Assembly (NCBI GenBank): GCA_008632985.1
Contig: QPGO01000014.1
Coordinates: 572,289-636,288 of the forward strand
DNA: 64,000 nt
DNA from: Psammoneis japonica
Lineage: Eukaryota
Direction of reading: 5' to 3'
The notes below the pieces were generated by a model that was not told the DNA's origin, ran no database searches, and saw nothing but the letters and a program-made list of their open reading frames with translations. Positions 25,615 through 64,000 of this stretch are shown here, one piece after another (position 1 is the stretch's first letter; each line of letters starts with the position of its first letter). The position numbers and the translations under genes were made by a program.

Positions 25615-25830
25615 TCACAGACGGACTCATTGCTGACAATGAATCTCACTCATTGCTGGAGAAAACCCACAGCAACAATGACAGTGGCAAATTGTTGGTT
25701 CCCAATGGACTGGTTGCTGACAATGAATTAAACTCATTGTCTGCGGAATCTGCCATGAATGATGGTGGTGGCATTTCCTCTGCACATGATGGACTTGTGG
25801 CAGACAATGAACTGGGCTCATTGTCAGAGG
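25615..25830 (+). repeat. Three approximately 84-bp coding-type repeats, (D/N)GL(I/V)ADNE.SL
   Basis: TDGLIADNESHSL, PNGLVADNELNSL and HDGLVADNELGSL in ORF 25413-26024. Confidence 0.75.
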
Positions 25831-27059: not shown

Positions 27060-29950
27060 TTGATTGGCACCAAGAACAGCTTGGGTGAGCACACTGCATT
27101 TTTGGAAGTGGACAGAGCTTGGTTTTTTACTTGGTCCAATTGTCAATGACTGACTGGGTTGGTGTGTTGCATGCACTCTATCATGGAATGCTTGTCTGCC
27201 TTGCACACGCATGGGTGAAAGACCGCGTGCAACTCACCATTGCTTTCCTTTTTGAAGAAACAGTGCAGCTGGGATGGGAAGAACAAATCCCCCCTCCTTG
27301 TCCCAAAGTTCACATCATTTGCCCAGTGGTGCACAGGTCCTTTGCTGTTGCAGCCAGGGTGAGCGTGGCAAGTGTCTGGCCCATTTTTGTTGTGAAACTC
27401 TGTTTTTGCAAAAAGGTTGTTGGAGAAACTCTCTCCTGCACCAACGCAATCCCACCACTTTTCCAAAAGAAATTGAGCAGGACTGGGTGGAGCTGACATT
27501 GTTTTTGCTTTCTGTGCCAGAGGAAGCTGACTGCCTTGTTTGTCACACTGCAGTGGATGGAAAATGTGCTCCCCCCAGTTTGTGTTCTTCCAACTCACGT
27601 GCCATGTTGTTTCTTTCCACCTTTGATGAAATCCATGGGTTTGCCAACAAGGCTTGGTGTGCCGTCATTTGGTCTTGCATGCGTGGCGCCACCTGACCAA
27701 GGAATGCATCAAAGCTGCATTGTTGTGCTGTCACCAAGGGCAATTTGAAAAAGTCTTTTAACAAGATTCCCCGAGACCCACATCAAAGTTCATGGCACAA
27801 CAGAAATGACACAGAAAGATTGGCAGGTGGAGCAGCTTGTGCAACTTTTGCAGCTTCCACCCAGCTCCTTCATGTCTGGTGAGAAATGGACAACGCAAGA
27901 CACCAGCAACCAAGTTTTCTTTGAGATTTTGTTCAGATTGGTTCTGTCATTTGGTTGGTTCCCAATTAGATGCCAAGCATGGAAGGTGAGCAAGTCTTCC
28001 AACAACTGGATGCACTGTCTGACACTGCATCTAAGGGGCTGTCTCTCATTTTTGCTTTTCTGTCAGTTGCATGTGTGGCAAGTTCCTTCATCTTCAGATT
28101 CATCCTGGTTGTGTCATGCAGAATTGTCTGAGTCCATCTTGCATGGAGCATTGGTTTCATCCTCACTGCATTCTTCCCCAACCACTGCATGGTTGTTGTT
28201 GGGATCACACTCTTCTGGGCTTTGGAAACAATTAATTTGGAACATGGGAATGCCACAACCCACTGGCAATGGAGAATCGTCTTCATCCTCTGCTCAGAAA
28301 CAAGAATTGTGTGCCTCTTGCCCTTCCTTTGTCAGAAGCAAGGGTGAAAAACAAAGGCCAGGCCTGCCCAGTGGTGAGAGTTTGGGGAGGCAAGTGAGGC
28401 AGCACCGCCTTTCCAAATTGGTTTGCAAGAAAGAGTTGCAAGTTGATCTGTGTTTCCCAAACATTTTTTCAACCAGTCTGTCAACCTTGCTTCTCACAGA
28501 GTTGGTCATGCTGTCAACTAACACACCGATCTCCCTTTTTAAAGTTCCATTTTCAAACAGTTGCATCATGTCACTGGCCGTTGAAAAGGCAACCCCAAAC
28601 AGCTGCTCACCAAAATCTGCCTTCAGCAAGCAGTTGGTGGGGACATTGTGTTGCTTCATGCAGTGCAGCTGTTGCTGCCAGTGATTCTTCTCTTTTTTGT
28701 CAAGACTTGGATCATTTACCTTGTGTTAAATGAGCAACAGATTGCTTGCATGCATGAGCTTGCAATCCTTCCAGGGGTCATCAAGTTCATTGTGTCCCAT
28801 TGTGAAAAACCTGGAACACTGTTGGCGACAATTTTTTGCACCGCACCAGCCCACAAGACAATCGCCACTCTTTGTGTCACCGTCAATTGGGGTTGTGGTT
28901 GGAATGACATGTAGGTGGCAGATCCAGTCACCGCATTGCACACAACAGCTGAAGCCACCTTGTTCCACAATGTCAAGAAGTGGCCAGAGCATTGTGGCCA
29001 GAGCATTGTGGCCAATGCCTTGTCACAATCATGGAGGCTTTGCCTCTTCTCCAAGTTGCGTGCATCAGACTGTTGTTTGGCTGTGGAGGAGGACATCTTC
29101 TCCAAGTCAGGAATGCAACCAAGGACTTGCCACTTTGCCCTGTCATGCCATTGGTTGCAGGCAACATGAGCCAAGGCAACTGTGACAGGCTCTCCACAAA
29201 AGGATCCCACAGAGGCTGTTTTTCCCATCTTGTCCATGCAAAATGTCAAACAATCAAGGAGCTCTTTAAGAGGATCCAAGACTCTGGCTGTGCATGTCCT
29301 TCTGTGCCACTTGCTGGCCAAAACACACTTGTCATTGTTGCCCTTGGCAACACACATTCCAAATGGATTGTTTGGGTCCACAAGATTGCTTTTGGTTGCC
29401 CATGTGCAAGTGTCCAGCATGAACGATTCCCAGGCATCTTTGAAATTCCATCGCGGAACTCAGGCAGTTGTCTCACCACGTTCCCTGGTTGCACTTTCCA
29501 GGTTGACTAGAATCATCTCGCATTTGGGACCAGGAAATGATTTGTGGAGGCTCTCCATTGGTTTGCTCCATTGTGGCATTTGCATGTCAACCTGGAATGT
29601 GCTCCCACAGTGTTGTTCAATGAATTCAGCAATCTTGTCATGCAGGTGCAGTGGTGCTCAGCAGTCATCTGCCAGCTTGCAAAGCTCTGCGCAAGCACCG
29701 TTGAGGTTGCTCAGAGAAGGCAAGCTGGCAAATGCATCTTTGGCTGGTTTTTTGCAGACCTTTCTCAATCTGCTGTCATTGCTGAGTGATTCCTTGTCAG
29801 CGTCTGATGATGTTGAATCATCATCATGTGGGGCTTTGGAAGCACACATGGTGACATCAGGCAATGTGTCAAAACAGTTAACTTCTGACTTGCTCTCATC
29901 CAACAACATCTCCAACGACATGCAGTGGCTCTCCTCAGGATTGCACTGCA
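27060..29950 (-). pseudogene. Decayed Plavaka-type (CMC-related) DNA transposase
   Basis: Motifs are recognisable once C/H are read back as Y: SKW[Y]RRT[Y], LTF[Y]MDK.G, EPVT, W.VLG[Y]IPDLE, DGDTKSGD.LVG, TASDMM.LFENG, LEDLLTFHAW, [YR]AHPG[Y]NSKGP..WA. Multiple frameshifts, including a 14-bp duplication at about 28980-29013. Confidence 0.7.
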
Positions 29951-32235
29951 ACCCAAGAGGGGAAACATCATCATCAAAAGATGCTGACTGTGGTGCATTG
30001 GTTGGTTGTGTTTGACAGCAGTTGGCCCAAGCCAGACATTTGCAGCAGATGCCCTCCGTTGTGACCGCCTCAGCCTGGGCAGTGACGAGTTGTCTGATGA
30101 TGAAGAAAGGTCCAGTTCCTCTGACTGCCTTCCATGTGCAATGTTGTTCCTCCCAGGGGAAGTGCAACCCACAACGCTGATGGACACCTCCAGCAATGGG
30201 TGTGGGGCAACAGGCTCTCAATGTGACAAGTTGGCCTTCTCTTGAACAAACAAGAAACATTGCAGGTTGTGATGGAAATGGGTGAGCATGCACGTGAATG
30301 ATTGTTTGCAACACGGACATGCCATTGCCCCATCCTCACCCTGCCAAACACCGTTGTCATCCATTTGGAAAATGGCAATGATTTGTGAATTGCACAACTG
30401 TGTTTGTGGAGCAATGGCCTCACTTGGTTAGATCATGGAAAGTGAGATGATTGTGCAGGGAAGCAAGAGAAACATGACACAAAATGGTGCAAAAATGCCA
30501 GTGCATTACATTCTTCCCATCAATGAAAACATTTGTGGGTGCAGATGAATTGCACATGTTGGGATCATTGTCTGCAGAAAGGAGAAAGTAAGTTGTGATG
30601 TGTTGGTTGCAATCATTCTGGATGCACCTCACTGTGATTTGCAATTGAGTGTAAAAGCAGGGGTGCACCCATGCCCACAGCAGGAGACAACACTTTGCCA
30701 TCAACCATGAATCTGGTTGCACAAAATGACAGATTAATGACCCCTTGGCCAAACAACTGCTGGCAAAAATCAAGGCAATGACAAACATGATGGATGAAAC
30801 AAGAGAGCAAATTACAGAAGCAGAGCATGATGCAGCTTTTGATGAAGTGGAGCACTTGATGCAATCAACAGACTCTGGGAGGATGGAACACACTGATGGC
30901 AATGGGGGGTGGTGGTTTGAGGAGGGGAGGAGGGAACATGCGGATGACCCGCACCTCTGCCATGACTGCATGGACATGTTTAGCATGTTGGACAGTTTAC
31001 AATGGCGTTGGGATGATGAGGAACACCAGTTGGTGTGGGAGGAACAATGGAAAAATGCATGCAACTTGATGGTTGTGGTGTGCCACCACATAAAAAAAAT
31101 GGAGTGACAAAGCAGTTGAGTGCATGCATGCTGGCACACGCATGTTCTCCATGTGTGATGACATCAACTGGGTGAACAACATCATCAATCATGGGGGAAG
31201 CGCTCACAAGTGCAAGGAATGTTGGGACTGCATTGCGATGCACCAAGACAGGCAAGGAAAGAGGCACTGTGTCTGCAGTCATTGCAACAACAATGGAGAG
31301 AGTGAAATGAGGGATGAACTTGCAGCAGGATCCATGGTGGGCAAAACGAAACTAGCCAAAGACAGGATGGACATTTGTGCTTTGAAGGAGATGTCCAGCA
31401 TTGGCTTGCCGACTTGTGGAATGGATGACAAAGGAACGTGCAGACCACTCAGAGAAAGGTCAAGGTGGGGAGGCACTTGCAGACCAGTGATGGACAAGGA
31501 TGGGATTGCCTTTGATGCCATGAAACAGGCAAAGTGGCTCCAGTGTGAAATGCTGCAGGACAAGCATGAAAAACTTTGATTTTGTGATGGAATGGAGTTC
31601 TTTTGTTTGTCACCCAGGACAGTCAATCATTGGACAATGGATTTTGTCAAGAAGTAGATTCAAGGTGAAATTTGTGAGCAGCAACATCAAAATGAGAGTG
31701 AGAGATGCTGTCTGGCAGAGAAACTCCGGGCACAATCACGTGGACCATTTTGTGAATTGTGTCAGACTAGAGACATTGGCTTTCAATTGCATGACTGATT
31801 GTTCTGACATCAGTCGGTGCAGCATGTTTAAAGTTGCAAGTTTGGAGGGAGACAAGGAATTGGACCAGACAACAATGTGGCACCAAAATGCCAGTGATGC
31901 CACAGCACCATTGTGGCACCGGGATGGTGGGAACAGGTGTCATTTGTTCATTGCACTCAAAATCACTTTTGCAGGTGAAATGGTTTCCAAATGCCTTTGC
32001 AGGTTGGACAAATGCGTGTGTCCTCAAATGAGTTGGAAATGAATTTAGAAATCACAGTCATGCAGAAGGTTTGAACTGGATTGTGGGTTGACATTTTTTT
32101 TTAAACACAATGAAGAGTGGCAAAACCAACAAAAAGATTGTGTGTTCACAGTTGTGGTTGTTTGCAAATTGTGTTGCAGTTAAAGGAGCGGAGTCATTGG
32201 TGAGAGCATCAGGTGTTTAGTGTTGAAAGAGAGGT

Positions 32236-33506
32236 TTGAAGATTTTGCAATGGCGACCATCGTCAAGGGAACAGAGGCATGCAGCTGCCCCACAATTCAC
32301 AACAGCCACAGAGGCAATGGCAAGGAAGAAGGAAAAACAGTGTGAGGAGGTGGCTAGAGATCAACCAACCAGCCCGAGGCTGGCCACAGCATTGATGAGG
32401 GCAGGAGCCAGTGGAGATTGCCAGTCCACAAAGAGAGAGGAAGAAGAGGTGGCACAGAGAGAGCCATTCCCAAGGGCGGAGTTCCTTGCAAAGGTGGACA
32501 TGGCTGGCAGTGGCAAAGTGCTGCAGCTCATTTGGAAAAAGACAGCAAGTGGCAATTTCAGCAAGCAAGACTGGGCAGGATTGTGGAAAGACTGGGCAAA
32601 GAAGTGCATCATGAATGCAACCAATGCAAAAAGGAACACCATCACCCAGACAATGCAGAAGAATGCAATGACTGGCAAGTGTTTTGTGATGCATGGCATG
32701 TTGAGTGTGGTTGTGCTTAACACCACCCTTCTTTGGTGAAGATGTGATGACAGAGCAGCAAGCCGAGGAATTGCATGGTCAGAAGAAACCTGCCATCAAA
32801 AACAAATGAGGGAACAAAAGGAAGAAGAAGGATCAAGCGGCGGATGAAGAACCATTCTTGGAAACTTGGGAGGAGCAGACAGCAAACACAATTGTGAAGG
32901 AGAAGCACAGCAACAAGGAAGCATGTGCATGGTTCTATGACAATGTCCTAAAATTCACAAAGCACACTGCAGTGTGGAGAAAAAAGGTGGAGTCAGGCAG
33001 GTGAGACCAAGGCTCCAGATCTAACTGCGGCAAGTGACAAGGCTCTGGGGCTGTTGACATTGGAAAACCACTGGAAGAATTGGGAGCACAAGGCCCTCAA
33101 TGAGAAGACTGTTGGAGGGGGGAAGACTCAGGGGACAAGGAGGAGGAGGAGGAGTCAAACTGGCACCCAAGTGCACATGCCCAACACCACAGTGCAACTC
33201 ATGGAATGAGAAAGGAAAATTGCAATTCAACGCCCTGCTTGTGCAAGTGAAGGAACAACATGGTGCAGTGGCAGCAAGAAAAGGGAGAGCAATCAAAAGG
33301 ACAAGGGAGCAAAAAGGAAGAAAATGCTGGTGGAGAAGGAGGCAAGAAAACAGGCAATGACAGAGCTTTTCAGTGACAACAAGGAGGACAAGGAAGAGGT
33401 GACAGACAGGAATGGGGGCAACAAGGATGGTGAAGATGAGGAAGAAGGAAGTGAAGATGGAAGCAACAATGAAGAAGAGGCAGAAATTGAGCAAACTTTG
33501 GTGTGA
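32236..33506 (+). pseudogene. Decayed accessory ORF of the type found with Plavaka-like elements
   Basis: Fragments AWFYDNVL, (SD.A)LGLLTLENHWKNWE, PK[Y]T...WNEKGKL.FNALL.QVKE and an acidic tail. Assignment is from recalled motif similarity only. Confidence 0.45.
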
Positions 33507-34379
33507 AGAGGGAGTGGAGCCTTTTGTCAATGCAAGAATGGAGCATGGCAAAGCAATGCATCGGTGTTCATTGAAAACAATCACAAACTGGGAATGCAGC
33601 AATTTAGTGTTCATTGAGAGATGTTTCATCCTTTTGATTGACAAACAGTTTGTGACACAGATTTTACAAACCCCATGAAACATGTTTGTTGGCATTGATT
33701 TGTTTTTTTGAAAGGCTTTTCAATGTCACAGTGAAAAGGTGAGAAAGGCATGTACTCTGAAGGGGGAACAGGTTGCATTTTCACAGTCAAAGGTTGCATC
33801 TCATGGGAGATGGTGGGCCCCCATGGCAACAATTTTTTTGTCTGTCATGTTCAACAAATTGTCACCACGTGCACAACTGTCAAGGTTTGAAACAACGGAA
33901 TTTCATGCCACAACAGACTGAAAGGTTTTCCATGAGAAAGGTGGTCTGGATCACTGTGATGTGTGCTCTGATGTCTGTTTCAAACAGGGTTGCCATTCAT
34001 TGATTTCCTTGAGAGACATCTCCAGTCTGTTGACATCAATGCTGCACGCAGCTGAGCCTTCCTCCTTCATTGACAGGCTCGCGTGCATTTTCCTGCCACC
34101 AGAGCTGATGCATGGACCCAGAACCACCATTGTTGTTAGTCATCATTTTTAACCGTTGCAACGTCAAACCCAGACTGAGTTGTTTGGAACTCTCTGTCTC
34201 TGCAAAGTCAAGACTGGCCCCTCAAGACATCCTTCAATGCTGCCAATCATTGCTGTTTCATTTTTGAGTTTCTGAGGCAGTCTCCGAACAATCCAACATC
34301 TCAAGAGCTTCCATTTGATGTTTTGTTTTGAGTTCTGCACACATTTTGTACCAGATCCTGTGCTTGAAGCCGTGTCTTT

Positions 34380-36100
34380 GATGTGCATCAGCCATGACAT
34401 CCAATTCACCAAGATCTACACCACTCCTGGCTTCACCAGGATGGACCACTGCAACTGCCAATGCCAACCCTTCATCAACTGTGCCTGTGCCTCTCAGGTG
34501 TGGCAGGATTCATTCTGAGCATGGGTGCTTCATGGGTGGATCACCATTGGACAACAACTGCAAGCCCAAGCTCTCTTGGTCCTGCTGTTCTGCCAACCAG
34601 TCTCACAAAAAGAAGATTCTGCCACACATTGAGTGCACTCTTTGTGAAGCAAGGAATGGAACGGATGTTGTCAAGTTTGACAGAAGTGCTGAACTCACCA
34701 AGGACGGTCACAACAAACTTGATGAAGCTCATTTCATTCAAGCTCTTTGCACCCCAGTCAAAGAACATGGGCCAGAGAACTTCTTTGCTGTGAAGCTTGA
34801 TGGCAAGGTCATGCCTCCATTTGAACATCTCCACTGATGAACACACGGAACGAGCCAAAAAAGCTTTGGATTTCTCCACCGGCAGCAAATGTGAGCACAA
34901 TGACATCTTTCTTTCAAGGTTGGTTGTCAAGTCTTGCACCTCCCATCAATTTTGAGGGAAGATCAAGGTCCAGCACGGTCATGAGAACCTGTTCAAGTGC
35001 TGTCCAGGCCAAGTCCACCTCTCATGATGGCCTTGGATGCTTGCAGTGCATCTGCCATCCATGATGTTGAACAAGCTGCCAAGGATCTCAATGCTCCATT
35101 GCTCTCGTCCTTTCCTTGCAAGGACATTTCTGAGTTTGCCACTGAAGCACTCCATCTCACCAAGCTTCTCCAAGCTGGCTGTGTGTCATTGATTGATCTT
35201 GGCTTGGATGTCCTGAAGAAATGTCTCAAGACATCATGCAAGGCTTTCAATTGTAAAATCCATGCCATGTTGGACAAGGTGTCACTCAAGAAACACAAGT
35301 GTCATCTCAGTGATCCCAAGGCACTTGCCAAGGACTCTGACTGTGACACTCTTGGGCCTGTGGTGTGCATTGCGCATCTCCAACAGCAGCATTGCTTCCA
35401 TGTTGCTGACAAGGATTGGCCCAGGCTCTCTACAAAGCTTCCCCAGAGCAACAACACTTCCAAGACCACTGGCAGGTGTGCCTGCAATGCCTGTGGAGCC
35501 AAGGACCACTGGGACAACAATCCCAAGTGTCCCAAGCATGCGGAATGTCAGAAGTGCTAGAAAGAAAAACGTCAGCAGTGATGACAGAACAGAAAGGATG
35601 ACTCAATGGCAGCTCCTGCCAACACATCGCCTCTTGCATCCTCTGTCACTGTTGACACTGTCCCTGCTGAGAAACAACCCAAACTCAAGGAATCGCTTGC
35701 CAAAAAGCCCCATTGTTGCACCCGCCTGGCAGATCTGTCAAGCCCATCATAAACAAGTGCGGTTTGACCACCAATTTTTGTGGAAAGTGCATGTGCAACC
35801 ACACCGGCATTGGAGGGATGCACACAAATCACAAGGAGTCAGACCATGTTTGCAAGCCACCCAAACAAGAGCAGCCTGCAGGAAATTTTGCCTCTGTTGA
35901 CAATCTAGATTCGGGCGTCCCATCTGTGCCACCCACCCAGACTGCTCCAGATCCAACCAATGTGCCCAAGGACATTTCTGTCAATGGGGACGAGCTGGTT
36001 TGGACCAGGTTTCATTGCTGCAAGGTTGAGGACCCGTCTCCCCTCCTGCCATGCCTGTCATCAACATCTCCTGCAGGTGGCTGCAAGCCTGCTCCTGCAT
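34380..36100 (+). pseudogene. Decayed Ty1/Copia (CoDi-like) gag
   Basis: Helical gag-like region (DISEFATEAL.L.KLLQAG...DTLGPV), zinc knuckle CNACGAKDHWDNNPKC and a second FCGKC.C..TG..G.H..H...H motif. A weak PBS-like tttgtaccagatc lies at about 34345. Confidence 0.6.
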
Positions 36101-37089
36101 CTCAGAGGGAGCAACCAATGATTGCAGTTGAGACCGTTGAACCTGAAGATGAGCTGATGATTTCAGCAATTGCTTCAACAGCTACAACAACCTTTCTTGG
36201 GATGATTCAATTGTCATGTTTCTGACCCAGCCCACCCCACCATCCATTGTTCCTGCCTTGGATTCTCCAGCTCCTCCTGCTGAGTGCTTCTTTGATGCCA
36301 TGTCCAAGCCCAAACCAACGCTGGACCCACTGGTTCCCCAAGCTCACCATCTGTGGCTGTGACATCTCCTCAAGCTTCTGCTCTTCTGGATCTCTGCCAT
36401 GCTTTGGCCTGTGGCTTGTTTGCTCTTGTGATGATCCTCCTTCTCCTCTTCACCGTGTCCGCACACTCAAGCACTGGCCTGCAGTGTGTTGCCATCCCTG
36501 CCGTTGGGGCGTGATTGCATGCGCGATTGCTCTTTGGCATTTTGTCTGCAGCGGCACTGCTCCTCCCCACCCCTTTCAGTCTTTTGACTGCCTCTCCTCC
36601 TCTCAAACATTCAAAGTTGTCTCTGCTCTGATCTGTTGCCCCTGGCACATTTGTCCAGTGCCACACTGTCAAGGCCAGATGTCAAGGCCAGACAGTTTGA
36701 ATGTGAGTTGGTGTGTTCAGAGGGAGTCAAGTCAAAAACACATCCACTCTGCCTTTCAAACTTGCCAAGTTGATTGATGCAAGTGATGCCAATGATTTCT
36801 TTGATGCACACACAGAGCTGCGGCTGCTCATTTGCCAGGAGTGCTTCTTTCATGCTGAGACCTTCCGTCAATCCGCCAGCCCGGATGTCTTTGGCATTGC
36901 TGACTTGTGTCATGCCCGACATTTGATTGATTGCACTCACACTCCAGCAATTGCTCCGGAGGACCTGTCTGCCTCTCATGTCCATCCATTCTCTGCTGTG
37001 ATCCTTCCAGGACAGAAAGCTTTGCTGAAGGAAGTAAAAGGGTGGGCTGCATGCTCAACAAAGGAGGCATGCCCAAAGCTTCAGTAGAA

Positions 37090-37800
37090 GGAGGCAAAGA
37101 GACCGCAAACAGTCTCAGTGACCTCTTGCTGAGCATTTGCGATGGCCATGGCATGCTTGGGATTTGGAGTGGAAGCAGGGGCCTGTGTGGGTGCTGGAGG
37201 AGGAGCAGTGGTGCAGCTGGAGATGCAGTGGCTGCTCCAGCAACTTTGGCCACAGGACAGCAGCGCTTGGTCTTGTGACAACAACAATGATCTTTGCCAT
37301 CAATGTTGCGGTGACTTTGGTGATGAGAATCATTGAATGTTCCATGCAAAGGTCATGAGTCTTGAAGGTGGCAGTGTCAATGACTTGAAAAATGTCATCC
37401 ATGTTGCACTTGACATGATTCAACTGCACAGTTTCAGTGGACATGGCCAGGTCACAAGTGTCTTCAGGCTTGTCAGGATTGTTGGTGTTGAGGATGAGCA
37501 GGTCAAAGCAGGTCTGCTGCTTGGCAGTTGCCTTTTGGAACAAGTCATTGAGTTTGTCTGGGTCCAAAGAGTCCCTCTGAGACTTGGCACGTGACGCCTT
37601 CAGAGTTTCAGTGGATGTCTTTGGCGCAGTGCAGACTTTTGCCTTTCATCCATTTGTCTCCACTGCAGACATGCTGGCTGGAGATGGAGTGTGCAAAGGC
37701 GGCAGAGGTGTGCTTGCTGCAGACATGCAGGCTGCACAAGAAAGCACAGGTTCTTTGGGTGACGGTCAGTTGCACTCCTGTTGTCTGTCCAAATGTGGTT
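37090..37800 (-). pseudogene. Second decayed LTR-retrotransposon gag-like fragment
   Basis: LDPDKLNDLFQKATAKQQT.FDLL...KPEDT.DLAMS.ETV.LNHVK.NMDDIFQVID resembles the N-terminus of diatom Copia gag. Confidence 0.4.
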
Positions 37801-40800
37801 CAGCAATGCAAGCAACAGTGTTGGCCTGATGGTCCAGGATGTTGACTGTCCAACAGAAGTTGCAAATTTTGTTTGCAAGCACAATGCCATTGCCAAGGCG
37901 GAAGTCCGCAATGGTCAGTTCTCTGTTGATGGATGTGTGAGCCTTTCCAGCTCACGTGTTGATTTGTTGTTTGCGTTCTTCAGCAATGCAATGAACAAGG
38001 TCTCAGCTTTTTGCAGTTGAAGCCTCTGCAGTTGTTCAATGAGGTTGTCAAGTGTTTCAGATCTTTGACTGGACATGCGCAAGAAGTTCAAGTTCTGCAT
38101 GCAGAATTGCACACAGAAACACACGGAGCTCAATTCTTGGTCGGAGAGAAAGAGATGAGTGCAGGAGTCATCAAGTGTGATGCTTGGGCTCCTGACCTGT
38201 GATGACTCTCAATTGAAAGCAGAATTGGAGATAACTGTTGGTTGAATTGGGTGGCACATTGCCAACAGCAGGGCTGGCAATGCACAAGAAGTGGATCAAG
38301 CTGCTGGAGTGTCATCACACTGGATGTGCAGGAATTGTGACAAGTCTGGAGACAAGCAAGGTGACAAACCACATGTGCAAGTGCAAAAGCATGCAAATTG
38401 CACATGAGTTTGCACTGTGCTGACATGTGGTGCAGGTCTAAAAAAAAAGTGACAACACATGGCATCTGCTCATTTTTGACAACATCACTCCAACATGAGC
38501 AACCAAGGTGCAGCTGGAGTCACACGTGCTTTCATTTGTTTGACTGTGACTTTTCCTCAGCTGGGCCCCAAGTGACTTCATTGTGGGGAGCATTTTGTGA
38601 GTGTTTGCAAACACACATCATGGCTTTGCCACACTCAAATTCATGTCACCCTCATGAATTATTGAAAAAAACAGGGCTGCTTTTTTTGTGGCAGCTGCCC
38701 CAAGATGTCTGTGGCCCTGTGGCAGATGTGCTGAGAATGACAATCTTGTTGACCTTGGCATTGATGTGGGCAGCATTGGTGCATGCAAAAAACATCTTGT
38801 GCCAAATTGACAACTGTGTCAATGCAAGATGCCACTCCAGAACCCTGCAGAGGCCATTGCTGAGGAGCTCAAAACGCAAGTTGTGATGCGGCCATTGATT
38901 GGATCAAGACATTTTTCACATCATGAGGCCAAACAAACCATCAGACAGCATGTCTCAAACCACACTGAAAGTGGATGCACTGCCCAAAGAAGAGCTTCTG
39001 GAATGAAATGTCAACACAGGTTTCATGCCTTGCATGTGCCGCAAAATGTGCCGGGATCACACACAGTGCTGCCACTCATGCGCCACACCAGCAGCAAAGC
39101 ACCAAGGAACCATGTTGAGTTTTCCTTCAATGCCAAACACAAAGCACACTTCCAAGCATTGGGCCAGTTGTCCCAAGGCTGCAAGGTGTGGGGAAGCCCT
39201 GATGTTTGACTCAACAAGCCCGAATGATTGATTTGTGATTCAAGCCTGAATGATTGATTTGTTGTTCAAGAGCAAAATTGAGTGTAAACCAACTGGTGCT
39301 GGTCATTGTGTTGCATTGTGTTGCACTGTGTGTCATGCTGCATTGAATTGTGCTTCACCACATTGACATGTGTTTCAACTCCACGGTCATTTTGCTCTGC
39401 CTGTCACACCCTGAGCACACCAATTCCCATGACATTGACAAACAACATCTTTTGCAGACTTCTTGATGCTCTGAAAGATGAGTTGGTGGTGGTGGTGGTG
39501 GGGGTTCTTATCTTCATTGGACGCAACACTGCACGCAACAATGTGGCTCTCTTGATTCAAACTGACAACATTGACTGGCATTAAACCAGCGTTTCTTGAG
39601 CACAAGGCAGGTGCCATTTGTGTTGACAGTTAAAAAGAAATCCTGCCCCCAACACAAGTTGACAACATCCACTCAGCAGCAGATTCTCTGCCAAAAAATC
39701 ATGGCAAAATTGTTCTGTGTTTGCTGTTGCAAAAATGTGCTCCTCACCACAAAGGTGAGTTGTGTGCTCATCAAATGTGTCAAAATTCATTGAGTCATGC
39801 TTGCATCCCACAAGGGTGTCCACAATGCCTTCCCAGCCCTCTTCCTTTCCTCCATTGGCACAGTGCAATGTCACCACCACTTGCTTTGTTTTGAAAGCAT
39901 CCTCTTGGCTTTCCTCTGTGTGCCCCAGTTGTGATTCAAATTCTTTTCAAGGCCCTTTTGAAGCAACTAACTTGGGCACGACTCAGCATGAAATGGTGAG
40001 CCAAAGATTTGCAAGGCTTGTTTTGCCAGTTGGCTCTCATGGAAAGACATGTTGTGGTGGTCAGCATGATGCATTGCTCTTTTAAAATTTGGCTGTTGTT
40101 TGGAGGCTTTTGAACAATCTCTGCATGGCACTTGCACTTGCTCTGATGACAATGAAGTGTGCACATCACCACTCATTGTTTCCCACCCTTCATTGTCATC
40201 AGTGAAAACACTGATTCCCACATTGTGGTTGATCCAATGATCAAGCTCAAAGGTGTTTTAGTTTCTCTTGGCACTCAAACACTGGAACAGGAACCTTGTT
40301 GCCACTCATGTTTGTTGCAGTCAATGGCAAAGCAAAAACCACAACACAGCAAATGAATGGGGAGCAGGAGAGATGGCACAAGAGCATTGGTGCAGTGTGC
40401 TGCAGTTGAAGCAAACCTTTGGATTTTTTGCACAATGCCAGACACAACAAGAACAGCTGATAATTGGCCACTCTGCAGTTTCTGGCCTGACTGCTGGGGG
40501 GAGGATTCAAGGAGTCCCACAAATGAGAAGGAGCCCATGCTGAATCTTTGGCTCTGGACAAAGTCAATCTGCCAGGGGCGGTTTTCCCAAATGAGTGTTG
40601 CACATGCTGACACATCAATGTGTGGGGTCACATGCACATGAGTTTGCCAATCACACTGAGTGGCAAGCACATCTGTCACCAACAGCTGGGCAAACTTGCC
40701 ATTTGCACTGCAAAGCCTGTCGATTGCTGAGTCGCAAGAATCGTCACTCTCTTTGTCCATTTTTCAGCTGCCCCAGTTGCACTTGCTCACTTTTTCAGAG

Positions 40801-41375
40801 ATGCCATGCACAACCAACTTGCTTGGAAGCCTGGAGCAGCCATCCCATTTCTTGCAGATTGACTGACTTTTGTTGTGTCAAATGACAAGCAGCACGCTGC
40901 TTTTTGATGACACAGTTGTCAAAAAATGACAACTTGTGGAACAACGTTCTTGCTGGCAGTGTTTGTCAGCTGCAACACATGTGAGCATCTGTTTGCATCA
41001 ACAGCTACTAGAACAATGTCATTCATTGACAGTTGTCAGGTGCAACAGCATGATGTCACTTAAACCCAGTGCACACGCCAAGCAAAAGTGCAAAAATGAA
41101 CTGTGTGACATCATTTGCACATTGCTCACAGCAGAGATGACGGACAGACAAGTGCGCACCGGCAGGGCGCGGGACGGATGATGTCGGATGGCTGGAGCGG
41201 CACGCACTGCCTGCACGAGTACCATACAGTACGGCATGTACTGTAGGGCCCTACTGATCGTAGTACGACGCGAAACACACATGCTGTACCGTAAAATTGA
41301 GCAGCAGAGCATCACACATCATACACCAGCAGTGAACGAGAGGTCCTTCCTGCTTCTGCTCTTGTCTCAACCGCC

Positions 41376-44860: not shown

Positions 44861-44989
44861 CGTTCTACACAAAATAATGGTCGCAATTCGACCTCTCCCA
44901 GGACGAAATTAAATGCTACGTTTCCTTCAACCAAGTGTATTCTTAATTAGTGTCTCCTGAACTTACCTTTGAATAGAAACTGCAAGTCT

Positions 44990-51519: not shown

Positions 51520-54500
51520 CCCAACACTGAAGCTATTCGCTCTTTTTGTTGTTGTCATCAAAGATCAAAGAAGCAACAGCATCGTCGTGTCACGGACAAC
51601 GTGCCCAATCACGAACGCGTCCGCACGCACTCCCTCCACACTCGTGACTAAAAAATTGAGGTTGATGTCAACGAAGTTTTCGCCGAGAGAGCGACGACAA
51701 CGACCATGACCCAAAGCACAAAGCAAAGCGGGTCGGGAGAAAGCAACAAAAAGCAACACCATGGCACGAGTTATCCCTTGCTACGGTCCCTGGAAGGGAA
51801 AGATTGTGACACTGTTGAGCCATCTTGTTCTGGCAATGTCATTCTCATCGAGCAGTCGCGGTGCCATCAACGTCAGAACAGCTGGGCAATCGCGACGTTG
51901 GTCTCGAGAACAAAGAATGCCCCGTGAATGGCACCACTCTACATCTGCTCAGCAAATACAATTTTTGAACAAGTGTTTGTGTGATTGTCATTTTTGTCAG
52001 CCATCCAACTGCGTGCTTTGGCTGCATCAAGAGAGACACTGCTGTCAATTGCCAATGATGCTGTGACCTCTGATGTCACATGCAGAGACAGTTTGAAAAA
52101 CAGTGCAGGTGGCCATCAGTGAGAGACAGAGAGTCACATGAAAGCAGGTGCACACAGCAGCCTCAAAATGACACTTGCCAAGTGAGCATGCTCTCACAAT
52201 CATTCTGTGCACGCAGCTTTTTGTTCATTGTCAACACAGCCAGTTGAACGCTCGCTCCTTTTTGTGTGCATGTTGGGATCCAAACATTGCTGAGTTGGCA
52301 ATTTTTGTGGTGCAAAATTTGATGTGCAATCTGTGCACATCATTTTCTGGGTTCTCTTTGTTTCTAACCAGCACTGAGCAACACAAAGTGCTTTTGGAAA
52401 TGCAGGCAGTTTTACTTGGACTGTGGTTGTCTTTGACAGATTCCACCAAAATTTCTAATTGAGAAGATGGAGTGAGAAAAATCACTCGAAAAATGTGAAA
52501 ATTGACCTGCTCACTCAATGACGTCAAACAGGGTGCACCAGATCACAAGGGAAAGTGAAGGCAACATTTGCGCTGCATGAAAGACAAAATGGCACATCAA
52601 CCAATGATGATGACACCTTCTGTCAGTCAACAATGGAGTGGCCTGCCTGTCAGCTCATTTTCTGATGCACGTGCCACAAAAGAATGTCTTGACGCATTGC
52701 ATGAACTGTGCATGTTGTGAGGGGCATTTTGGCATGATGTTGCGGCTGTGGGACTTTGCTGAGTTCCCTTCAATTGACTCCAAAGTCCAATTTGATTTGT
52801 TCATGATAGTCTCAACCCTCTTGCCTTGCCCAACAGTGGGCTTCAAACTCAAATCCCACCAAACAGCTCCAACTGCCAAAAACAGCTCCAACTGCCAAAA
52901 ACAAAAAGAGCCTCTGCTCTGGGGGGGGGGGGGGGTGTTTTGGATCACTGTCATTCAAGGTTCCCTTGTGTGCCACTGCAAAAGTGCTCCAAAACCATTC
53001 AGGGAATGTTCTAAAATGTGCCAATTTGTGTGGAAACCAAACTTTGGAGCCAGCCAACTCACCAAAGAGACAGAGGATTTGCTGTTGTGAACATGCAGTT
53101 GTCCTGGCTGTTCAAGCATGATGTGCAGCAGTGCAAAAGCTTCACAGATTAGATGGGTCAAGTGCCAAGAGGTGTGCACCCATCAAAACTGGTTTCTGTT
53201 TCCTGCAAACAAAAGAGTGCATCTTGGAAGCCTTGTGAGTTTTCAATGGCAGCACCTGCAGCCACAAACTGTTGTGATGTGTCACAACCACCATGTCAAA
53301 TTTGCATTGAGTCAGCTCCAAAATGATCTTGAATTGCCCCGAAATTTAAATGCCAGTGGACAAAAAAGGCGTTTTGTCATTCCTGCATTCTGCCATTCCG
53401 GGGCCACACCAAAAGTGCTCCGGGGCTGCACCAAAGCCATTCCCAAAGGGAATCTCTGGAAAAAGCCTGGCACCAAAACAGTGTTTTCAGATGATGCTCT
53501 GAATGAAGCCCCACCAGGAACATGCAGCACCATCAACCCACCTGCAGCAACAAAAATGCTTCTGCGCCATGGCAAGAGAGCTGCAGCAACAATCAGCACA
53601 AAGTGTCAAACTCACAGTGCACGACTGCACTGCTCACCATGCAAATGTGCCACCAAAAGCCACAGCAGATTCTCTTGCAGAAACAGTCATCTAGAGGCTA
53701 ACAAGGTCAGAATAGATTTGGAGTGGAGGCTTGCGTCATGCTTCAGCACTTTGCCAGGCATGTTGTTCTTCAAGTTGTGGGGCCTTTTTCAACATGAGGG
53801 CAATGTTCCTCATGGGTTTCTGCCCACTCACTTGTTGCACACCCTTGTTTTCTGAAGCTGCATTGTTCTGAAACCTGTTGAGCTGGGAACCTGTGTTGGA
53901 GTGCACAAAGACATGACAAGAAAATGATTTGTGTCAGAACAGAGTCAGCTGCAAATTTGAGGTTGCTGAGTGCCATCACTCCAACACCTGTTTTTGAAAA
54001 TCAATGCATTGGTGTCAGCTTTGTGCATGTTTTCATCTTAGATTGACTGGCAAAGCAGGTTTGTGGATGACAATGGCACGCAAGGTGACAGTGGACAGCG
54101 CTGACTTTTGCATCACATCAACGCAGCATCACCATTTGCCATTCGCCGTTCAACCCCATCTGGGGGTTGCATGGTCCTGCCAATGCAATGTTTCATTGAC
54201 TGCTCAGTGGTTGGTGATTGCAAACTTTTTTGTGTGCGTCGGGCAGTTGGTCAGTTGGTTGGGCAGTCAGGATGCTGGAGTGCCACCAGCATCACCAATG
54301 GGAAGTGCACAAAGATTGTGGCTTGCACACTCCTGCTGTCAATTGTGGGCCCATGGTGAGGCCCAAGACCTGAGAGCCAGCAGCTAACTGAGCAGCAACC
54401 TGCGGCAACTCAAAGCAGCATGTGATGGGAATCCTTGCACCTGGTCCTTCTGCTCAGTGGGCCCATCAACATTGTCAAAAACAGCAGTGAGATCCAGGGC

Positions 54501-55900
54501 CAGGACTGCCAGGAGATTGATGTGCTCCCAGCAATGGAGCCAGAGTCATTGCAGGCAACTGGGTCCTGTGAGCTGGCAGCCAGTGCCAACATGAGGTGCT
54601 GCTGCATGGCTGGGCTGGGGGTGCACCCAACCCAGCTTGGCTTTGCACATGATGAACTCACAAGAACAATGCTGCTGGCATGCCACAGCGTGGGGGTGGT
54701 GTGTGCCCAATGGAGTCACCCATGAGACATGCCCACACTGGTGAGCAATCTTTACTTGCCAGGTGGAGAGCTGGGTGGCAGCAGATGCCGGGTGTGTCAG
54801 CCACTTTTTCATCCTGTGGTTTCAACTGTCAAAAATCTGTGCCTTCCTTGTGATTCGCAGATGCTTTTTGAGAACGATCAACTGGGTGCAAAAAAGCATT
54901 GTCCAGAGTGAAAGATTTTTTTTCCATCTTTTTTCTGTCAAGCATTGCAAGTCATCATGTTGCCGATTTAACTTCTGCTGTCTTTAAGCCATCACTTGAA
55001 GTGCCTTCTTCTTTCCTTCTGTTTTGTTTTCACACACTGGAAAAACTTTTTTCACCAACTGTCTTGCTTCAATCATCACCAATTGAAGTCACTGCTGCCC
55101 CAATGCTGTCACTTGAAGTGCTTTTTTCCTTTCCTTCTTTGGCATCCTTGCACATGCAGCACACACACACTGAGGGGAAAAAGCTCATCTCAGGACATTG
55201 CAACAATCGACATGAAGACTTCTGCTGCTCTGCCAGACAGCCAATGCTGCTGCCAGTGTCGAGCAAAAAAGAACTGAGCACACATGCCAGCAGTGCGTTG
55301 GCATTGTCATCACAGGTGTGCCCACCTCAAACATGCAAAACAATCTCATTTTGTCTGCAGAAACAGAGTCAATCTCAGTCCCTTGTGGGGCACCACCAGC
55401 ACCAGGCCCAACAATGCCCTGCACACAAAAGAAGACTGAGGCAGCGCTGCTTGCCTTCCACGGCACTGTCCAGCAAAAAAAAACATGCACACACGCCAGC
55501 AGTGCACCGGCCCCAAAGGTTCCCACTTTGCTGTGCCAACCCCAACCCAATTCCTTGACCAACCTCTGCGGCTCCATTCCATCGCACCCAGATCTGCGAG
55601 ATTGAGTCGGCACGGTCTATTTGCGCTTTTTCTTCGTCTTTGGACTGCAGTGGCTCAGCCTCTCTGTCTCAGCCGGACTCTCCATTTCCTCGGAATCTCC
55701 ATTTCCGCCGGGCTCTTCCTCTCCGCTGGATTGGTCCACTGCTTCGTTGGGTTGCAAAGCGGTGCGATGAAGGAAAAAGGAATTACGACTGCAGGTCACC
55801 ACCTGCTTGTCCTGGTGGTTGACAGACTCTGGTGCGAAAGCTGCGTTCATGTCATTCCTACGGCATGTCGGATCATGGAAATTGGCACATTATTTTTGAA
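51520..55900. other. Second TpA/CpG-depleted block, probably a decayed transposon, family not recognised
   Basis: Same dinucleotide signature and Tyr-free ORFs as the 14.6-41.2 kb island. Poly-G at 52921 and a 19-bp doublet at about 52862-52900. Confidence 0.7.
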
Positions 55901-60001: not shown

Positions 60002-60107
60002 TTACGCTTTCACGTTTGCCTGTAGTTTGGTTTTACCTATGACAAGTGTGAGCTGAACTCGCCTCATCATTCATTTTGTACGAGTTACAATGGGTTTCTT
60101 TTGCTTT

Positions 60108-61040
60108 TCGAACTTCAACTTCCCTTGTAGTTTGCCGAAGATTGTTGACATGAAAGATCGCGAGAGGGAAACGTAGAACTTGTACTAGCTGCATGCGTAA
60201 GAACTTCAACTTCCCTTGTAGTTTGCCGAAGATTGTTGACACGAAAGATCGCGAGAGGGAACTAACATTTATGTCGTAGAACTTGTACTAGCTGCGTGCG
60301 TGAAAACTTCAACTTCCCTTGTAATTTGCCGAAGATTGTTAGTTGACACGAAAGATCGCGAGAGGGAACTAATATTTATGTCGTAGAACTTGTACTAGCT
60401 GCGTGCGTGAAAACTTCAACTTCCCTTGTAATTTGCCGAAGATTGTTAGTTGACACGAAAGATCGCGAGAGGGAACTAACTAACATTTAAGTCGTAGAAC
60501 TTGTACTAGCTGCGTGCGTAAAGACTTCAACTTCTCTTGTAATTTGCCGAAGATTGTGACACGAAAGATTTCGATTGCCAGAGGGAAAATTATAATATGT
60601 ATGTGTACATGTAAGAACGTCAAGGTCATTGGCTAACATTATTTATGTCGTAGAACTTGTACTCTACCTCTCTAGCTAGCTAGCTGCGTACCACACCGAA
60701 TACGGCGCCACAATTAATTCAAATATCGCGCGGACAGCCTACAATCTTGCGCGCGACAACTGCCCCTTACTCGTACGACTGCATTTACCACATGACACCC
60801 ACTTTTTCACTGTGAGAACGTCAAGGTCATTGGCTAACATTTATGTCGTAGAAATTGTACTCTACCTCCAGCTGCGTGCGCAAAAACTTAAACTTCCCTT
60901 GCAATTTGCCAAAGATTGTTGACACGAAAGATCGCGAGAGGGAAACATGGAACTTGCACTCTCTGGCTGCGTGCGCAAAAACTTCAGCTTCCCTTGTAGT
61001 TTGCCGTAGATTGTTGACACGAAAGATCGCAAGAGGGAAA
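60108..61040 (+). repeat. Satellite-like repeat of 90-110 bp units (five at 60110-60590, two at 60870-61040), possibly subterminal repeats of the adjacent MULE
   Basis: Core aacttcaacttcccttgta(g/a)tttgccgaagattgttgacacgaaagatcgcgagaggga. Confidence 0.9.
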
Positions 61041-61779
61041 AAAAACACAAATCCTGTCCCCACCTGCATGAGTCCCCCATGTCCGCATGCCGGGTGCACC
61101 CTGCCCGACCACCCCACAAGCCGCTCCCAGCTATCTGGCGGAATCTCTCTCCTGTCTTTTTTGTTGTTTTCTCTCTTTTTGAATTTCCATGCTTGTCCCA
61201 ACAAATGAGGATTTTTCTTTTGCCCACATTTGAAGAGCATTCAGAATCTTCATTGCCCCAGACCATTTTTTGAAGACTCGTCTCTCCGCACACTTTCATC
61301 TCAAACCAAGTGACACAAGCATCGGCCACACGGACAGCTCCGGCTCATCGTTTGCAAGTTTGTGTGTGTCCCCCCCCCCTGGTTGTGCCAAAGCAATGGT
61401 TCCTCATCTTTGTTTCTTGCTCTGGCCAGGCGGCAACATCGCTTGGCATTGAAGCAAGCTCTGATTCTGTTCAGGAGGCGATGCGTTCCAGCTCCAGGTG
61501 GGACCTCGTACCACTGAACTGTGACATCAACAGTTTTTTGGATCGTGCCGCATGTCATGCAAGTGGATGGCTACATGTGACATTCTACGAAATTGTTTCA
61601 CACTTCCTGTTTTGCGAAGCCAAAGGCTTTCTATTTTCTGCAGTTGTGACAATGAAAATGCGCTGGGTGTGTTCTTTAATGTCTGTGGAACACACCCACA
61701 CAAACCATTGTTCATGTGCTTAAAGTGTGAAGAAGGAGATACGTTCATAAAATTGCCTCTTTTTCTGTTGGCAATCATT

Positions 61780-64000
61780 CACATTCTCATTGCTCAATGA
61801 ATTTACTGCGGAGCTCGTATGCAGAATTCTGTGGGCCCAATGTCACACGGAGTCCCACCTGGGATTGGAACCCGTCAGGCTTTGTCGCCTGTTGCTTTTC
61901 TGTCGCTTGATGCACCTCCTTTTTGTCACTCCATGACCACAGCTCAGCAAGCTGTTGGTGCTCCCGCTTCATCATGCAATGATTTGAATCAGTTGCTTCA
62001 GAGTTCTCTTGATGGACTGCTCACATGGTCTCCCAAACTCTGCATGGATGGTGTCATGGTTGGCCCTGGAACAAATCCCTCCAAATCAAAGGTTGACCTG
62101 ATGCCCTGCCTGGACAAGAGCAAAACTGGTTCCATTGTCAAGTTTTGCCCTCAGAGACATCCTCCCACCAATGAAAGCCATCTTCTTCTAAAACGTGATG
62201 TGCAAAATGCAGCAGCCGGTGAGTGTTGCAAGTTGGTGACAGACCAAGGTCGCGACATTTTTGAGTGCTGTCGTCACAAAGTTTGCAAGCCAAAGCACTC
62301 CAAATCCAAGCCATTGAAGAATGAAAAAGAGTTTGGGAATGAACTCTTTCCAAACCACCAAACGTCAGGCAATTTGCATCGTCAGTCAATGCACAACAAC
62401 AAGAAGCTCAACCAAGGTCGCCCCGCACAGAGCAACGGCAGGTGCACCACAACAACTCTGCCCATTCACAAAGCGCACTGGTGTTGATTTCACTTCACAA
62501 TCAAGTTCCACAATTTTGGCAATCTGGAAGACGGGTGCTTCCACCTGTTGTGCTGTTGTGGCATCCACACTTGTCACACGCACCCACGCAGTGCGCAGTG
62601 GTGATCATGTGACGCGGTCTCTGTCTCAGTTGTTGGAAGAGACGAAGATGCCAGTTAAGATGGGTGGCATGGCATCCACAGGATCTGGAGTTGTTTGTTG
62701 TTTGATGCATCACATGACCAATGAAACAGTCACCCAATCTCAGGTCCAGCGCCTTCAGTCGAGATTGCAGTCTTCTGTCTCTGCCAGCAAGTCATCCTCC
62801 TCTGACAAGTTGCCAAGGCATTTGCGTGACAGGCGTCAATTGCTGTCCTTCACAGCCTTGCATCACTTGGTTGATTCTCAGTTTGTGAAGCATTGCAAGG
62901 GCCATCCTCCAAAGGGCGGCTGCCATCCCATCTCAGAGATCAGAAAGGATCTCACTGTGAATGTGGAACCCATCATCAATGACTGTGATGCTGACTGCTG
63001 CATTCCTCCTTTGGCCAGCTGGTCTCCTGGTGATGATTGTGATGATGATGACAACTGCATTCCTGCCTTGACCAGCCAGTCCTCTGGTGAAGATTGTGAT
63101 GACAACAGAAATGATGATGCGGAAAACAATCTCCACATGCAAGGCTTCATTGAGTCAGATGTTGCAACCGGCCAAAATCCAAGGTGGTGCATTTTGGTCC
63201 ATTTCAGCCGGGAGCAACAAAGTGTGGTGTTGTGAACCAAGAGACTTCTCAAGCAAAGCCCAGCCAGTGATTGCTCCTCATCACCGCTTGGTGCTTTGAC
63301 TGTGAATGGCGTGAGTTCCTGAGGAATCTGGACATTGTCACTGTTGACGCCACACAGTTGGGTAAAGCCAGGCTGTGACACAAAATTGCAATGTCAAGTT
63401 TCCAAGCATCTGTTTTTTCTCCTTTTTAAAAACTGGAAGTGCTTGCAGCGTTGGGCAAGGCTGCAGCACAGAAAGTTCACGATTGGGTCATCAATCACAT
63501 CAAGCCATGCAAGAACAATTGTCTCTTTCATTTGCATGGTTGTGTGAGGCACCGTGACGAGTGCGCTGGGACTCCCAGCGAAGGCATGAACAAAGCTGTC
63601 AAGAAAAGCGGTGCAGCATCAAGACCCAACATGAACCTTGACACCTCAGCTCAAGCCATGGAGAATCAATCGCAAATGAAGAAATGCGAAACCAAAAGGA
63701 AGAGAGCACAGGACTTGCACACATCAAATTTATGGGCAAAGACTGGCCTTGAAGGCAAGGTCATGAACCTCATGAAGCAACTCATAAAAACACAAGTCCT
63801 GCAGTTTGTCAACTGCCACATTGCCAGGATGGGTCCCTTGGAGTGGTTGTTTCTTTGCAAAGAGGAGGGTGGTGATGCAAGTTCACCCAGGAAATGTGAT
63901 GTTCTTCCATGTTTCCATCATTTACGTCATGTGACCAAGACACCTGATGGTTGTCTCCTTTGTGATTGTGGATGTCATCATCACTGCGGCATTCTGTGTT
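61780..64000 (+). pseudogene. Decayed MULE (Mutator-like) transposase inside the third TpA/CpG-depleted block
   Basis: LLKRDVQNAAAGE, R.TTTTLPI...C.FHFTI, G...H.HP, AWCFD.E.REFLRN.DIVTVDAT (first catalytic Asp region) and SEGMNKAVK resemble diatom MULE transposases. Confidence 0.55.

Follow-up and report, generated by a model that had tools for sequence, protein, structure and literature searches.

Is the near absence of the dinucleotide TA from parts of a genome an inherited base composition, or is it what a mutation process leaves behind in the places where it acts? The question is raised by a satellite array (60108-61041) in a 64,000-nucleotide stretch of Psammoneis japonica DNA, which runs into a block depleted of both TA and CG. 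The stretch (GenBank assembly GCA_008632985.1, contig QPGO01000014.1, positions 572,289 to 636,288 of the forward strand), hereafter the window, supplies all the coordinates given below. A first-pass annotation made from its letters had claimed that the five outer copies of the satellite agree with each other, that the two copies nearest the block differ from them mostly at TA and CG sites, and that, the majority state being ancestral, TpA loss is an active, position-dependent mutation process rather than an inherited composition. The analysis reported here supports that conclusion for a process that may no longer be running; the support comes from the satellite, from protein relatives, from paralogous repeats and from a precedent in the chlorarachniophyte Bigelowiella natans. 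We consider it very probable that a real, directional and domain-limited mutation process has shaped the blocks; the direction of change, its confinement to the blocks, an edge that falls within the array and a rule of sequence context can each be read off the data. As to the chemistry, adenine deamination is our tentative choice and may well be correct.

The satellite array and the edge of the depleted domain

Unit borders were set by a common start motif, and the units were aligned from their window coordinates (Table 1). Unit length ranges from 91 to 111 bp, and Tandem Repeats Finder (TRF) reports a period of 107, 3.6 copies and 93% matches. The fifth unit is broken and includes two copies of the unit tail, named t5a and t5b; within its region, 60610-60670 and 60811-60868 are 92% alike. 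When each unit was scored against the majority of the remaining units, units 1 to 4 showed 5, 3, 3 and 3 differences, of which 0, 2, 1 and 0, respectively, fall at TA, with two at CG in unit 1. The outer copies are therefore close, with three to five differences each among units 1 to 4, but they are not identical. TA is kept at 5/5, 6/8, 6/7 and 7/7 sites in units 1 to 4, and t5b, directly to the left of unit 6, keeps 5/6 TA and 3/3 CG.

Unit 6 shows 9 differences over 93 positions, including one indel-edge effect. All five of its reference TA sites are lost, every one by a single transition to CA or TG; two of its seven CG sites are lost, both now being CA; and the last remaining real change is a transversion that makes a new TA, in the resistant TTAA context. 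The alignment of the units and the test for enrichment at TA sites, which the annotation had proposed as checks, show that the changes of unit 6 concentrate on TA, with a binomial P of 0.00125 for at least 5 of 9 changes landing on the 10 TA positions. Unit 7, on the other hand, presents 4 differences over 61 positions, of which one lies at CG (CG to CA) but none at TA, from which it follows that the signal is carried by unit 6 and not by two copies, as had been proposed. Taken together, units 6 and 7 have lost 5 of 6 TA and 3 of 11 CG, and they fall in a zone that is TA-poor yet still CG-rich. The sequence contains both 20-mers quoted in the annotation, at precisely 60167-60186 and 60941-60960, as well as the other changes quoted there. 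In particular, the change from GCGTAA to GCGCAA, counted there twice for the inner copies, is present, but one of its two instances lies in t5b, outside the inner two units.

The same site bears on the direction of change. It reads TA in units 1 and 4, TG in units 2 and 3, and CA in t5b and unit 6, and TA is taken to be ancestral because TA alone yields both TG and CA in one step. Furthermore, t5b and unit 6 have in common two derived features, an ACTCT insertion and a GCGCAAAA end; the shared insertion makes them sisters, so that units 1 to 4 serve as the outgroup for the changes private to unit 6. Polarized in this way, the CA and TG states of unit 6 read as derived. The rule that the majority state is ancestral would be weak on its own, because units 1 to 4 are recent copies of one another, and the claimed direction finds its support in this sisterhood with its outgroup, together with the conserved tyrosine and arginine columns of outside homologues described below. 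The edge itself, inside the array, is confined to 17 bp.

Table 1. Features of the window discussed in the text (strand given as a dot where a feature has none)
Feature	Position	Strand	Description
Depleted block 1	15200..41100	.	~26 kb
Dead gene in block 1, unnamed family	22126..25589	+	~3.5 kb; tblastn pieces in three frames
Depleted block 2	51900..55450	.	~3.5 kb; TA depletion extends ~400 bp beyond on either side
Satellite units 1-4	60112..60523	+	91, 103, 107 and 111 bp; mutually close; TA and CG intact
Unit 5, broken	60524..60885	+	head 60524-60592, then ~290 bp of other sequence containing two unit-tail copies
t5a, tail copy of unit 5	60628-60692	+	
t5b, tail copy of unit 5	60822-60885	+	last base directly before unit 6
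Edge of the TA-depleted domain	60864..60881	.	ancestral TA last intact at 60863, first converted (now CA) at 60881-60882
Satellite unit 6	60886..60980	+	complete, inside the depleted domain; TA 5/5 and CG 2/7 converted to CA/TG
Satellite unit 7	60981..61041	+	truncated where other sequence starts
Depleted block 3	61041..64000	.	continues past the window end; TA nearly absent, CG declining inward
High-copy element inside block 3	61480..61876	.	~400 bp, near-normal TA; depth 29,000-45,000 vs 64.5

Composition, sequence context and direction of the loss

Two compositional states are found in the window, where 56 of the 128 half-kilobase windows are depleted and are grouped in three blocks that make up about 44% of its length. 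We compared a block set (15.5-40.9, 52.1-55.3 and 61.3-64.0 kb; 31.3 kb) with an outside set of 27.9 kb. The blocks contain 140 TA (observed/expected ratio, O/E, 0.06), 346 CG (0.20), 3540 CA and 3566 TG (1.82 each), whereas 1085 TA (0.55), 1488 CG (0.98), 1975 CA (1.16) and 2015 TG (1.14) are found outside; CA and TG together thus number 7106 in the blocks versus 3990 outside. Base composition is equal within 0.006 between the two sets (GC 0.473 in the blocks, 0.466 outside), and the remaining 12 dinucleotides shift in O/E by at most 0.16, the largest shifts being those of GA/TC (1.13-1.14 to 0.97-0.98) and GC (1.04 to 1.19). The summed deficit of TA and CG is about equal to the surplus of CA and TG, and about 80% of the CG in the blocks has been lost to TG or CA. 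Such a composition is the one to be expected of transitions at the two self-complementary pyrimidine-purine steps, and of nothing else. Moreover, the counts of CA and TG are similar in each 2-kb slice of block 1, so that both strands must have been hit alike, which argues against an RNA intermediate. We know of no genome-wide value that comes near a TA ratio of 0.06 with not a single ATAT left.

The loss depends on the neighbouring bases, on the assumption that the normal parts represent the composition from which the blocks started. Comparing what is left in the blocks with what occurs outside, we counted 0 versus 81 ATAT, 3 versus 77 GTAC, 9 versus 50 CTAG and 39 versus 52 TTAA; in terms of the base 3' of the A, on either strand, TA loss follows the order T > C > G >> A. 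A one-flank additive model derived from these four palindromes also fits the mixed contexts, as in the case of CTAA and TTAG, for which 0.32 was predicted and 0.25 and 0.33, respectively, were observed. As for CG, only 5 TCGA are left versus 147 outside, while the other NCGN contexts survive at 0.09-0.40; survival is 0.03 in TCGA, 0.09 after any T and 0.25-0.28 after A, C or G, and a CG with a T before it is lost about 2.5 times faster. Such context specificity fits enzymes rather than selection.

The direction of change can also be read from a dead gene in block 1. A phmmer search of 1.84 billion representatives with the longest open reading frame (ORF) of this block, 24469-25518 (350 aa), gave 34 homologues at E <= 0.001, the best with 47% identity over 294 residues (E 5.6e-78), and the homologues of the dead gene that were looked up are all unnamed proteins on metagenome contigs. 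A read-through translation, with stops written as X, was aligned with seven homologues, among which 202 columns are conserved. None of the nine conserved Tyr columns has Tyr in the window (His in 3, Cys in 2, other residues in 4), and only 1 of the 18 conserved Arg columns has kept Arg, with an AGG codon, the others showing Trp (4), Cys (3), Gln (1), His (1), a stop (1) and other residues (7); an in-frame TGA at 24454 stands on a conserved Arg column. Residues whose codons lack TA and CG are better kept: Trp at 5/6, Gln at 5/6, His at 4/5, Glu at 6/8 and Leu at 14/21 columns. Since the Tyr and Arg columns follow the changes predicted from TAY to CAY/TGY and from CGN to TGN/CAN (Y, pyrimidine; N, any base), it follows that TA and CG were formerly present in the block and disappeared from it in this lineage. 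As judged from this alignment, the gene was killed by the loss of TA and CG.

Paralogous repeat copies in the genome point the same way, with double changes of TG versus CA at 53804/5, 61798/9 and 62841/2, and beyond 61544 the repeat is rich in TA and CG in a single contig from a sister run. Block 1 is, in addition, flanked by a diverged direct duplication (11974-14587 versus 41350-42689; pieces of 75-92% identity, with 92% over 1052 columns). When its two copies were compared, TA to CA/TG changes numbered 11 versus 3 and CG to CA/TG changes 6 versus 3; standing amid 70 differences that include 25 transversions, this polarity is suggestive only.

The borders of the blocks were placed by likelihood change points for TA and for CG, plus 100-bp profiles. 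At the left border of block 3 the change points are 60890 for TA and 61140 for CG, so that TA depletion reaches 250 bp further out; it also reaches further out at the left (390 bp) and right (410 bp) borders of block 2, while at the right border of block 1 it is CG depletion that reaches 135 bp further, and the left border of block 1 shows a two-step fall. Edge widths range from 17 to about 800 bp, the four borders other than the satellite edge being graded over 100-800 bp. Because the TA and CG edges do not coincide, the two processes must be at least partly separate. A TA-only halo around every block was rejected as a rule, as it fits 3 of the 5 borders only.

Candidate mechanisms and their rivals

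We propose that the satellite crosses the outer edge of a chromosomal domain which would have been brought near saturation by two strand-symmetric transition processes acting on the DNA itself, TpA to TpG/CpA and CpG to TpG/CpA. The blocks would be silenced DNA containing dead genes and repeats. CpG loss in them would come from the deamination of methylated cytosine, and TpA loss from an enzyme deaminating adenine 3' of T in DNA, the resulting inosine being read as G, as has been proposed for the same spectrum in B. natans. Such an enzyme would act in the domain only, chromatin state or small-RNA guidance being examples of what might restrict it; unit 6, inside the domain, would thus have lost every TA, and the copy 20 bp to its left, outside, would have kept them.

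Several observations weigh against this proposal. With regard to the chemistry, A to G on one strand is indistinguishable from T to C on the other, and a preference for T as the 3' base is unlike that of the known adenine deaminases, given that ADAR favours a 3' G and that the natural site of TadA is UAC. With regard to the domain, unit 7 lies nearer the depleted block, and it nevertheless retains its one TA (60997) and has gained another (61007); in addition, the edges of TA and CG loss differ with an uneven offset, TA reaching further out at 3 of 5 borders, CG at 1 of 5 and the fifth falling in two steps. The idea that the blocks are foreign DNA gains no support from the six-frame read-through of 15.0-41.2 kb, in which no viral or transposon Pfam domain was found. 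Furthermore, the high-copy element inside block 3 has 10 TA in 397 bp (61480-61876), whereas its two flanks, of 439 and 2124 bp, have 1 and 7, and it is probably a younger insertion hardly touched by the process; this TA-normal insert suggests that most of the damage is old and that the process does not act at present, or acts only slowly. Finally, the sequencing run used for the read check described below is probably the assembly's own sample, so that the check is not independent and tests the raw data rather than the biology.

The lesion might instead lie on the thymine side. A TET/JBP-type dioxygenase would mark the T of TpA in silenced domains, as 5-hydroxymethyl- or 5-formyl-uracil and possibly in a hypermodified form, and the modified T would sometimes pair with G, or be removed and wrongly repaired, with T to C as the outcome. 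The decay of TpA would then stand to a thymine mark as that of CpG stands to 5-methylcytosine (5mC), each being the mark's mutational shadow. In its accessible part, a study of phages reports that T-dioxygenases are linked with thymidine-hypermodification-type transferases (PMC13229309). A likeness is also offered by the 5-hydroxymethyluracil (5hmU) of dinoflagellates, a base mark on repeats which, according to the accessible part of its report, is enriched on transposons and replaces thymine preferentially in TA and TC (PMC11572971). That part describes no mutational footprint, whereas here it is the footprint that is known, from sequence alone. We regard a thymine-side lesion as unlikely, although credible enough to be kept beside adenine deamination.

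It is possible to hypothesize, as a long shot, that the blocks are chromatin domains with two mutagenic, strand-symmetric marks, 5mC on CpG and a modified T (or A) on TpA, and that the TpA mark is written by the family of the dead gene. The alignment of 13 members of this family shows an invariant H-x-D and, after it, an N (H123, D125 and N128 in the first member), and the predicted structure of the first member has two parts (predicted local distance difference test, pLDDT, 73.8; predicted template modelling score, pTM, 0.71). As a lead from this model, one part may be TET/JBP-like and the other may resemble a thymidine-hypermodification transferase, a pairing that is suggestive because phage T-dioxygenases are reportedly linked with such transferases, in the study cited above (PMC13229309). 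TET/JBP dioxygenases themselves combine a double-stranded beta-helix fold, an H-x-D motif and a distal His and Arg. None of the 13 members has a Pfam match; a sequence-profile search of the PDB gave a chance match only (E 0.42), and Foldseek with the model returned 0 matches at E <= 0.001 in the PDB and in viral models.

A different reading of the edge is that block 3, with 1.6 satellite units, was hypermutated as part of another locus or element and that recombination within the satellite afterwards attached it to the intact array, in which case the sharp edge would be the joining point and not the boundary of a domain. The sharpness of the edge (17 bp), the rearranged stretch that it adjoins (unit 5 broken, its tails duplicated) and the direct duplication that flanks block 1, such as integration by homologous recombination would leave, would all suit this reading. 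However, t5b and unit 6 have derived features in common, including the first converted site (GCGCAAAA), which points to their having been neighbours before or during the process, and the other four borders are graded rather than clean. Moreover, there is no sign of other genomic copies of the satellite: the summed word depth over the satellite is 89-154 versus a single-copy level of 64.5, and the 6 matches in the window all lie within the array (0 expected), with none elsewhere in it. A search of a metagenome collection with the 27-base satellite core gave 0 loci. We judge a junction of this kind rather improbable.

It is very improbable that the blocks are foreign or selected DNA that always avoided TA and CG, for instance a viral insert whose sequence host nucleases or RNA sensors had shaped, with the satellite differences due to ordinary divergence and chance. 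CpG and UpA are both suppressed in many viruses, as the accessible part of one study describes (PMC3829696), and no homologue of the largest ORF of block 3 (62318-63232) was found at E <= 0.001 among proteins of similar length. Against this stand the conserved Tyr and Arg residues, replaced exactly as TA and CG loss predicts, with one Arg codon now a stop, since selection for avoidance would not destroy a protein; the depth of the loss (ATAT 0 versus 81 outside, TA O/E 0.06); and the host satellite, which was hit as well (P about 0.001).

Among three public runs, none of them of RNA, one contains 96% of the sampled words from 54-64 kb, and the two others cover next to none. In k-mer contigs built independently from the reads of that run, single-copy DNA has the same word depth, about 64.5, whether depleted or normal, and block 3 is covered at a depth of about 64 except in the repeat. 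Contigs of 1729, 7219 and 491 bases, which show 1, 2 and 0 differences from the window, respectively, span the borders near 52.0, 55.5 and 60.87 kb. No mixed half-and-half CA/TG variants were found in the single-copy depleted parts of these contigs, where two populations of reads would be expected if a modified T in a palindromic TA were misread. Although the stretch is found in one run only, probably the source of the assembly, it is therefore scarcely credible that misread modified bases, or a regional polishing or assembly error, produced the pattern; the depleted blocks are real.

Surroundings, known systems and significance

The normal parts of the window contain ordinary genes, namely, a kinase, an FMN (flavin mononucleotide)-dependent dehydrogenase, a polysaccharide deacetylase and a Knl1 domain, the last being an RWD domain at 0.66-1.64 kb. 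The organism-named homologues of the dehydrogenase are all diatoms (Bacillariaceae sp., Amphora and Skeletonema; best identity 70-72%), as are those of a 1455-aa ORF (Thalassionema nitzschioides and Bacillariaceae sp.), while the polysaccharide deacetylase ORF matched bacterial clusters only in an atlas search, a result that does not bear on taxonomy. In the blocks, none of 95 ORFs of at least 110 aa has a Pfam match, and the sole match among 12 read-through frames of 15.0-41.2 kb is the C-terminal (RWD) domain of host-type Spc25 (Pfam E 7e-08; 15565-15810, with the match at 15628-15807, minus strand), at the left edge of block 1, which is graded. With TAA and TAG so scarce there, both strands of the blocks carry many long overlapping ORFs, of up to 350 aa; most of them would be false genes if reported by a gene caller, with Cys, His, Gln and Trp abundant in them.

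Some stretches of the blocks occur repeatedly in the genome, as indicated by summed depths of 815-1340 at 53.7-54.7 kb and of 29,000-45,000 at 61.2-62.1 kb, whereas other parts are single-copy at 90% likeness. The high-copy element of block 3 has hundreds of genomic copies; 41 variant contigs were seen, along with loose ends at 61590, 61650 and 61873-61877. At 61818 it has T (TA) here, while nearly all the summed depth of the other copies has C (CA); a joint from 54612 to 61480 was also seen, with a shorter side of only 21 letters. With regard to the duplication flanking block 1, such a pattern would be left by the integration of a circle through homologous recombination, or by tandem duplication, and its left copy contains a 216-bp tandem (14165-14599). 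Short tandem and dispersed repeats (units of 82, 104 and 116 bp) lie at 44260-46400, in an AT-richer, TA-normal stretch. We also considered the TA-poor kilobase at 59.0-60.0 kb as hypermutated and rejected it, since the protein read from its ORF is of an ordinary secreted type and shows no excess of His or Cys. This ORF (59165-59975, minus strand) is CG-normal and has a signal-peptide-like start, with the satellite just upstream of it; 9 TA occur in 59001-60000, and the ORF is probably an ordinary gene.

For TpA-specific DNA hypermutation there is one earlier description, given in 2026 for the chlorarachniophyte B. natans (Mettrop et al.; 10.64898/2026.01.13.699255); this preprint is the sole report of the spectrum that we found, and our literature search for TpA depletion or hypermutation in diatoms returned none. 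According to its accessible text, a 378-day mutation-accumulation experiment with 15 lines placed 231 of 302 nuclear single-nucleotide mutations in one integrated giant-virus region and one virophage region; of these 231, 230 went from A to G or from T to C, and all such GC-ward changes are placed on TpA by the authors. The de novo events arose in some lines only, at about 1000-fold the background rate; 124 genome-wide clusters of TpA-poor, CpA+TpG-rich windows are described, and an ADAT2-like deaminase is proposed. The same text makes no mention of CpG, on which the supplementary dinucleotide plots may bear.

As far as that text goes, the two cases are alike in the change of TpA to TpG/CpA on both strands, in its regional confinement (there from kilobases to 186 kb) with the rest of the genome normal, and in a long-term TpA-poor, CpA+TpG-rich footprint with many unannotated genes. 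They differ in several respects: the host here is diatom-like (Stramenopiles); depletion is deeper, with a TA O/E of 0.06 versus a Rho of 0.45 for their nucleocytoplasmic large DNA virus (NCLDV) region; and CpG is co-depleted in our blocks, whereas the B. natans spectrum is almost free of GC to AT changes. The targets there are viral inserts, while here no viral hallmark genes were found, the content recognised being a dead gene and high-copy repeats, and what is seen is the footprint and not de novo events. CpG loss in our window may be a separate, slower process, invisible to a 378-day experiment.

Other systems share single aspects of the pattern. RIP (repeat-induced point mutation) of fungi is likewise a defence-like transition hypermutation that ruins genes in blocks and is able to leak into flanks. 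However, RIP turns CpA into TpA, raising TA and lowering GC, whereas here TA is removed, CA and TG are raised and GC is unchanged (0.473 versus 0.466), and much of the DNA hit here is single-copy when judged at 90% likeness; RIP was therefore rejected as the cause. APOBEC3/ADAR-type editing of retroelements also fixes context-specific deaminase damage in the genome, but it acts on single-stranded cDNA or on RNA and is strand-biased, different from the balanced CA and TG counts found here and from a host satellite changed in place. The CpG decay of methylated repeats in vertebrates and plants, which is confined to silenced DNA, resembles our CpG depletion with its gain of TpG and CpA, methylation being presumed in the present case, yet it would explain about half of the changes, and the TpA process has no counterpart there. 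The preference for CG preceded by T recalls the TCG-biased hypermutation of basidiomycetes, as described in the accessible part of its report (PMC3318451).

What is new in this window is the saturation of the footprint, its extent over about 44% of the sequence, a three-base context rule, a parallel CpG decay and an edge of 17 bp. The context rule could be used for matching candidate deaminases or dioxygenases, and the pair of repeat copies inside and outside the domain offers a natural comparison for the mapping of base modification and chromatin. The protein signature, Tyr to His or Cys and Arg to Trp, Cys, Gln or His, provides a simple test for victims in other genomes, and the long false ORFs that the blocks yield on both strands call for caution in annotation. 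A saturated footprint in a diatom-like genome suggests that TpA hypermutation occurs more widely among algae. If the hypothesis of two marks were true, diatoms would have a second silencing mark, based on thymine, whose evolutionary shadow, TpA decay, could be read in any genome sequence, and the 17-bp edge in the satellite would be the boundary of an epigenetic domain.

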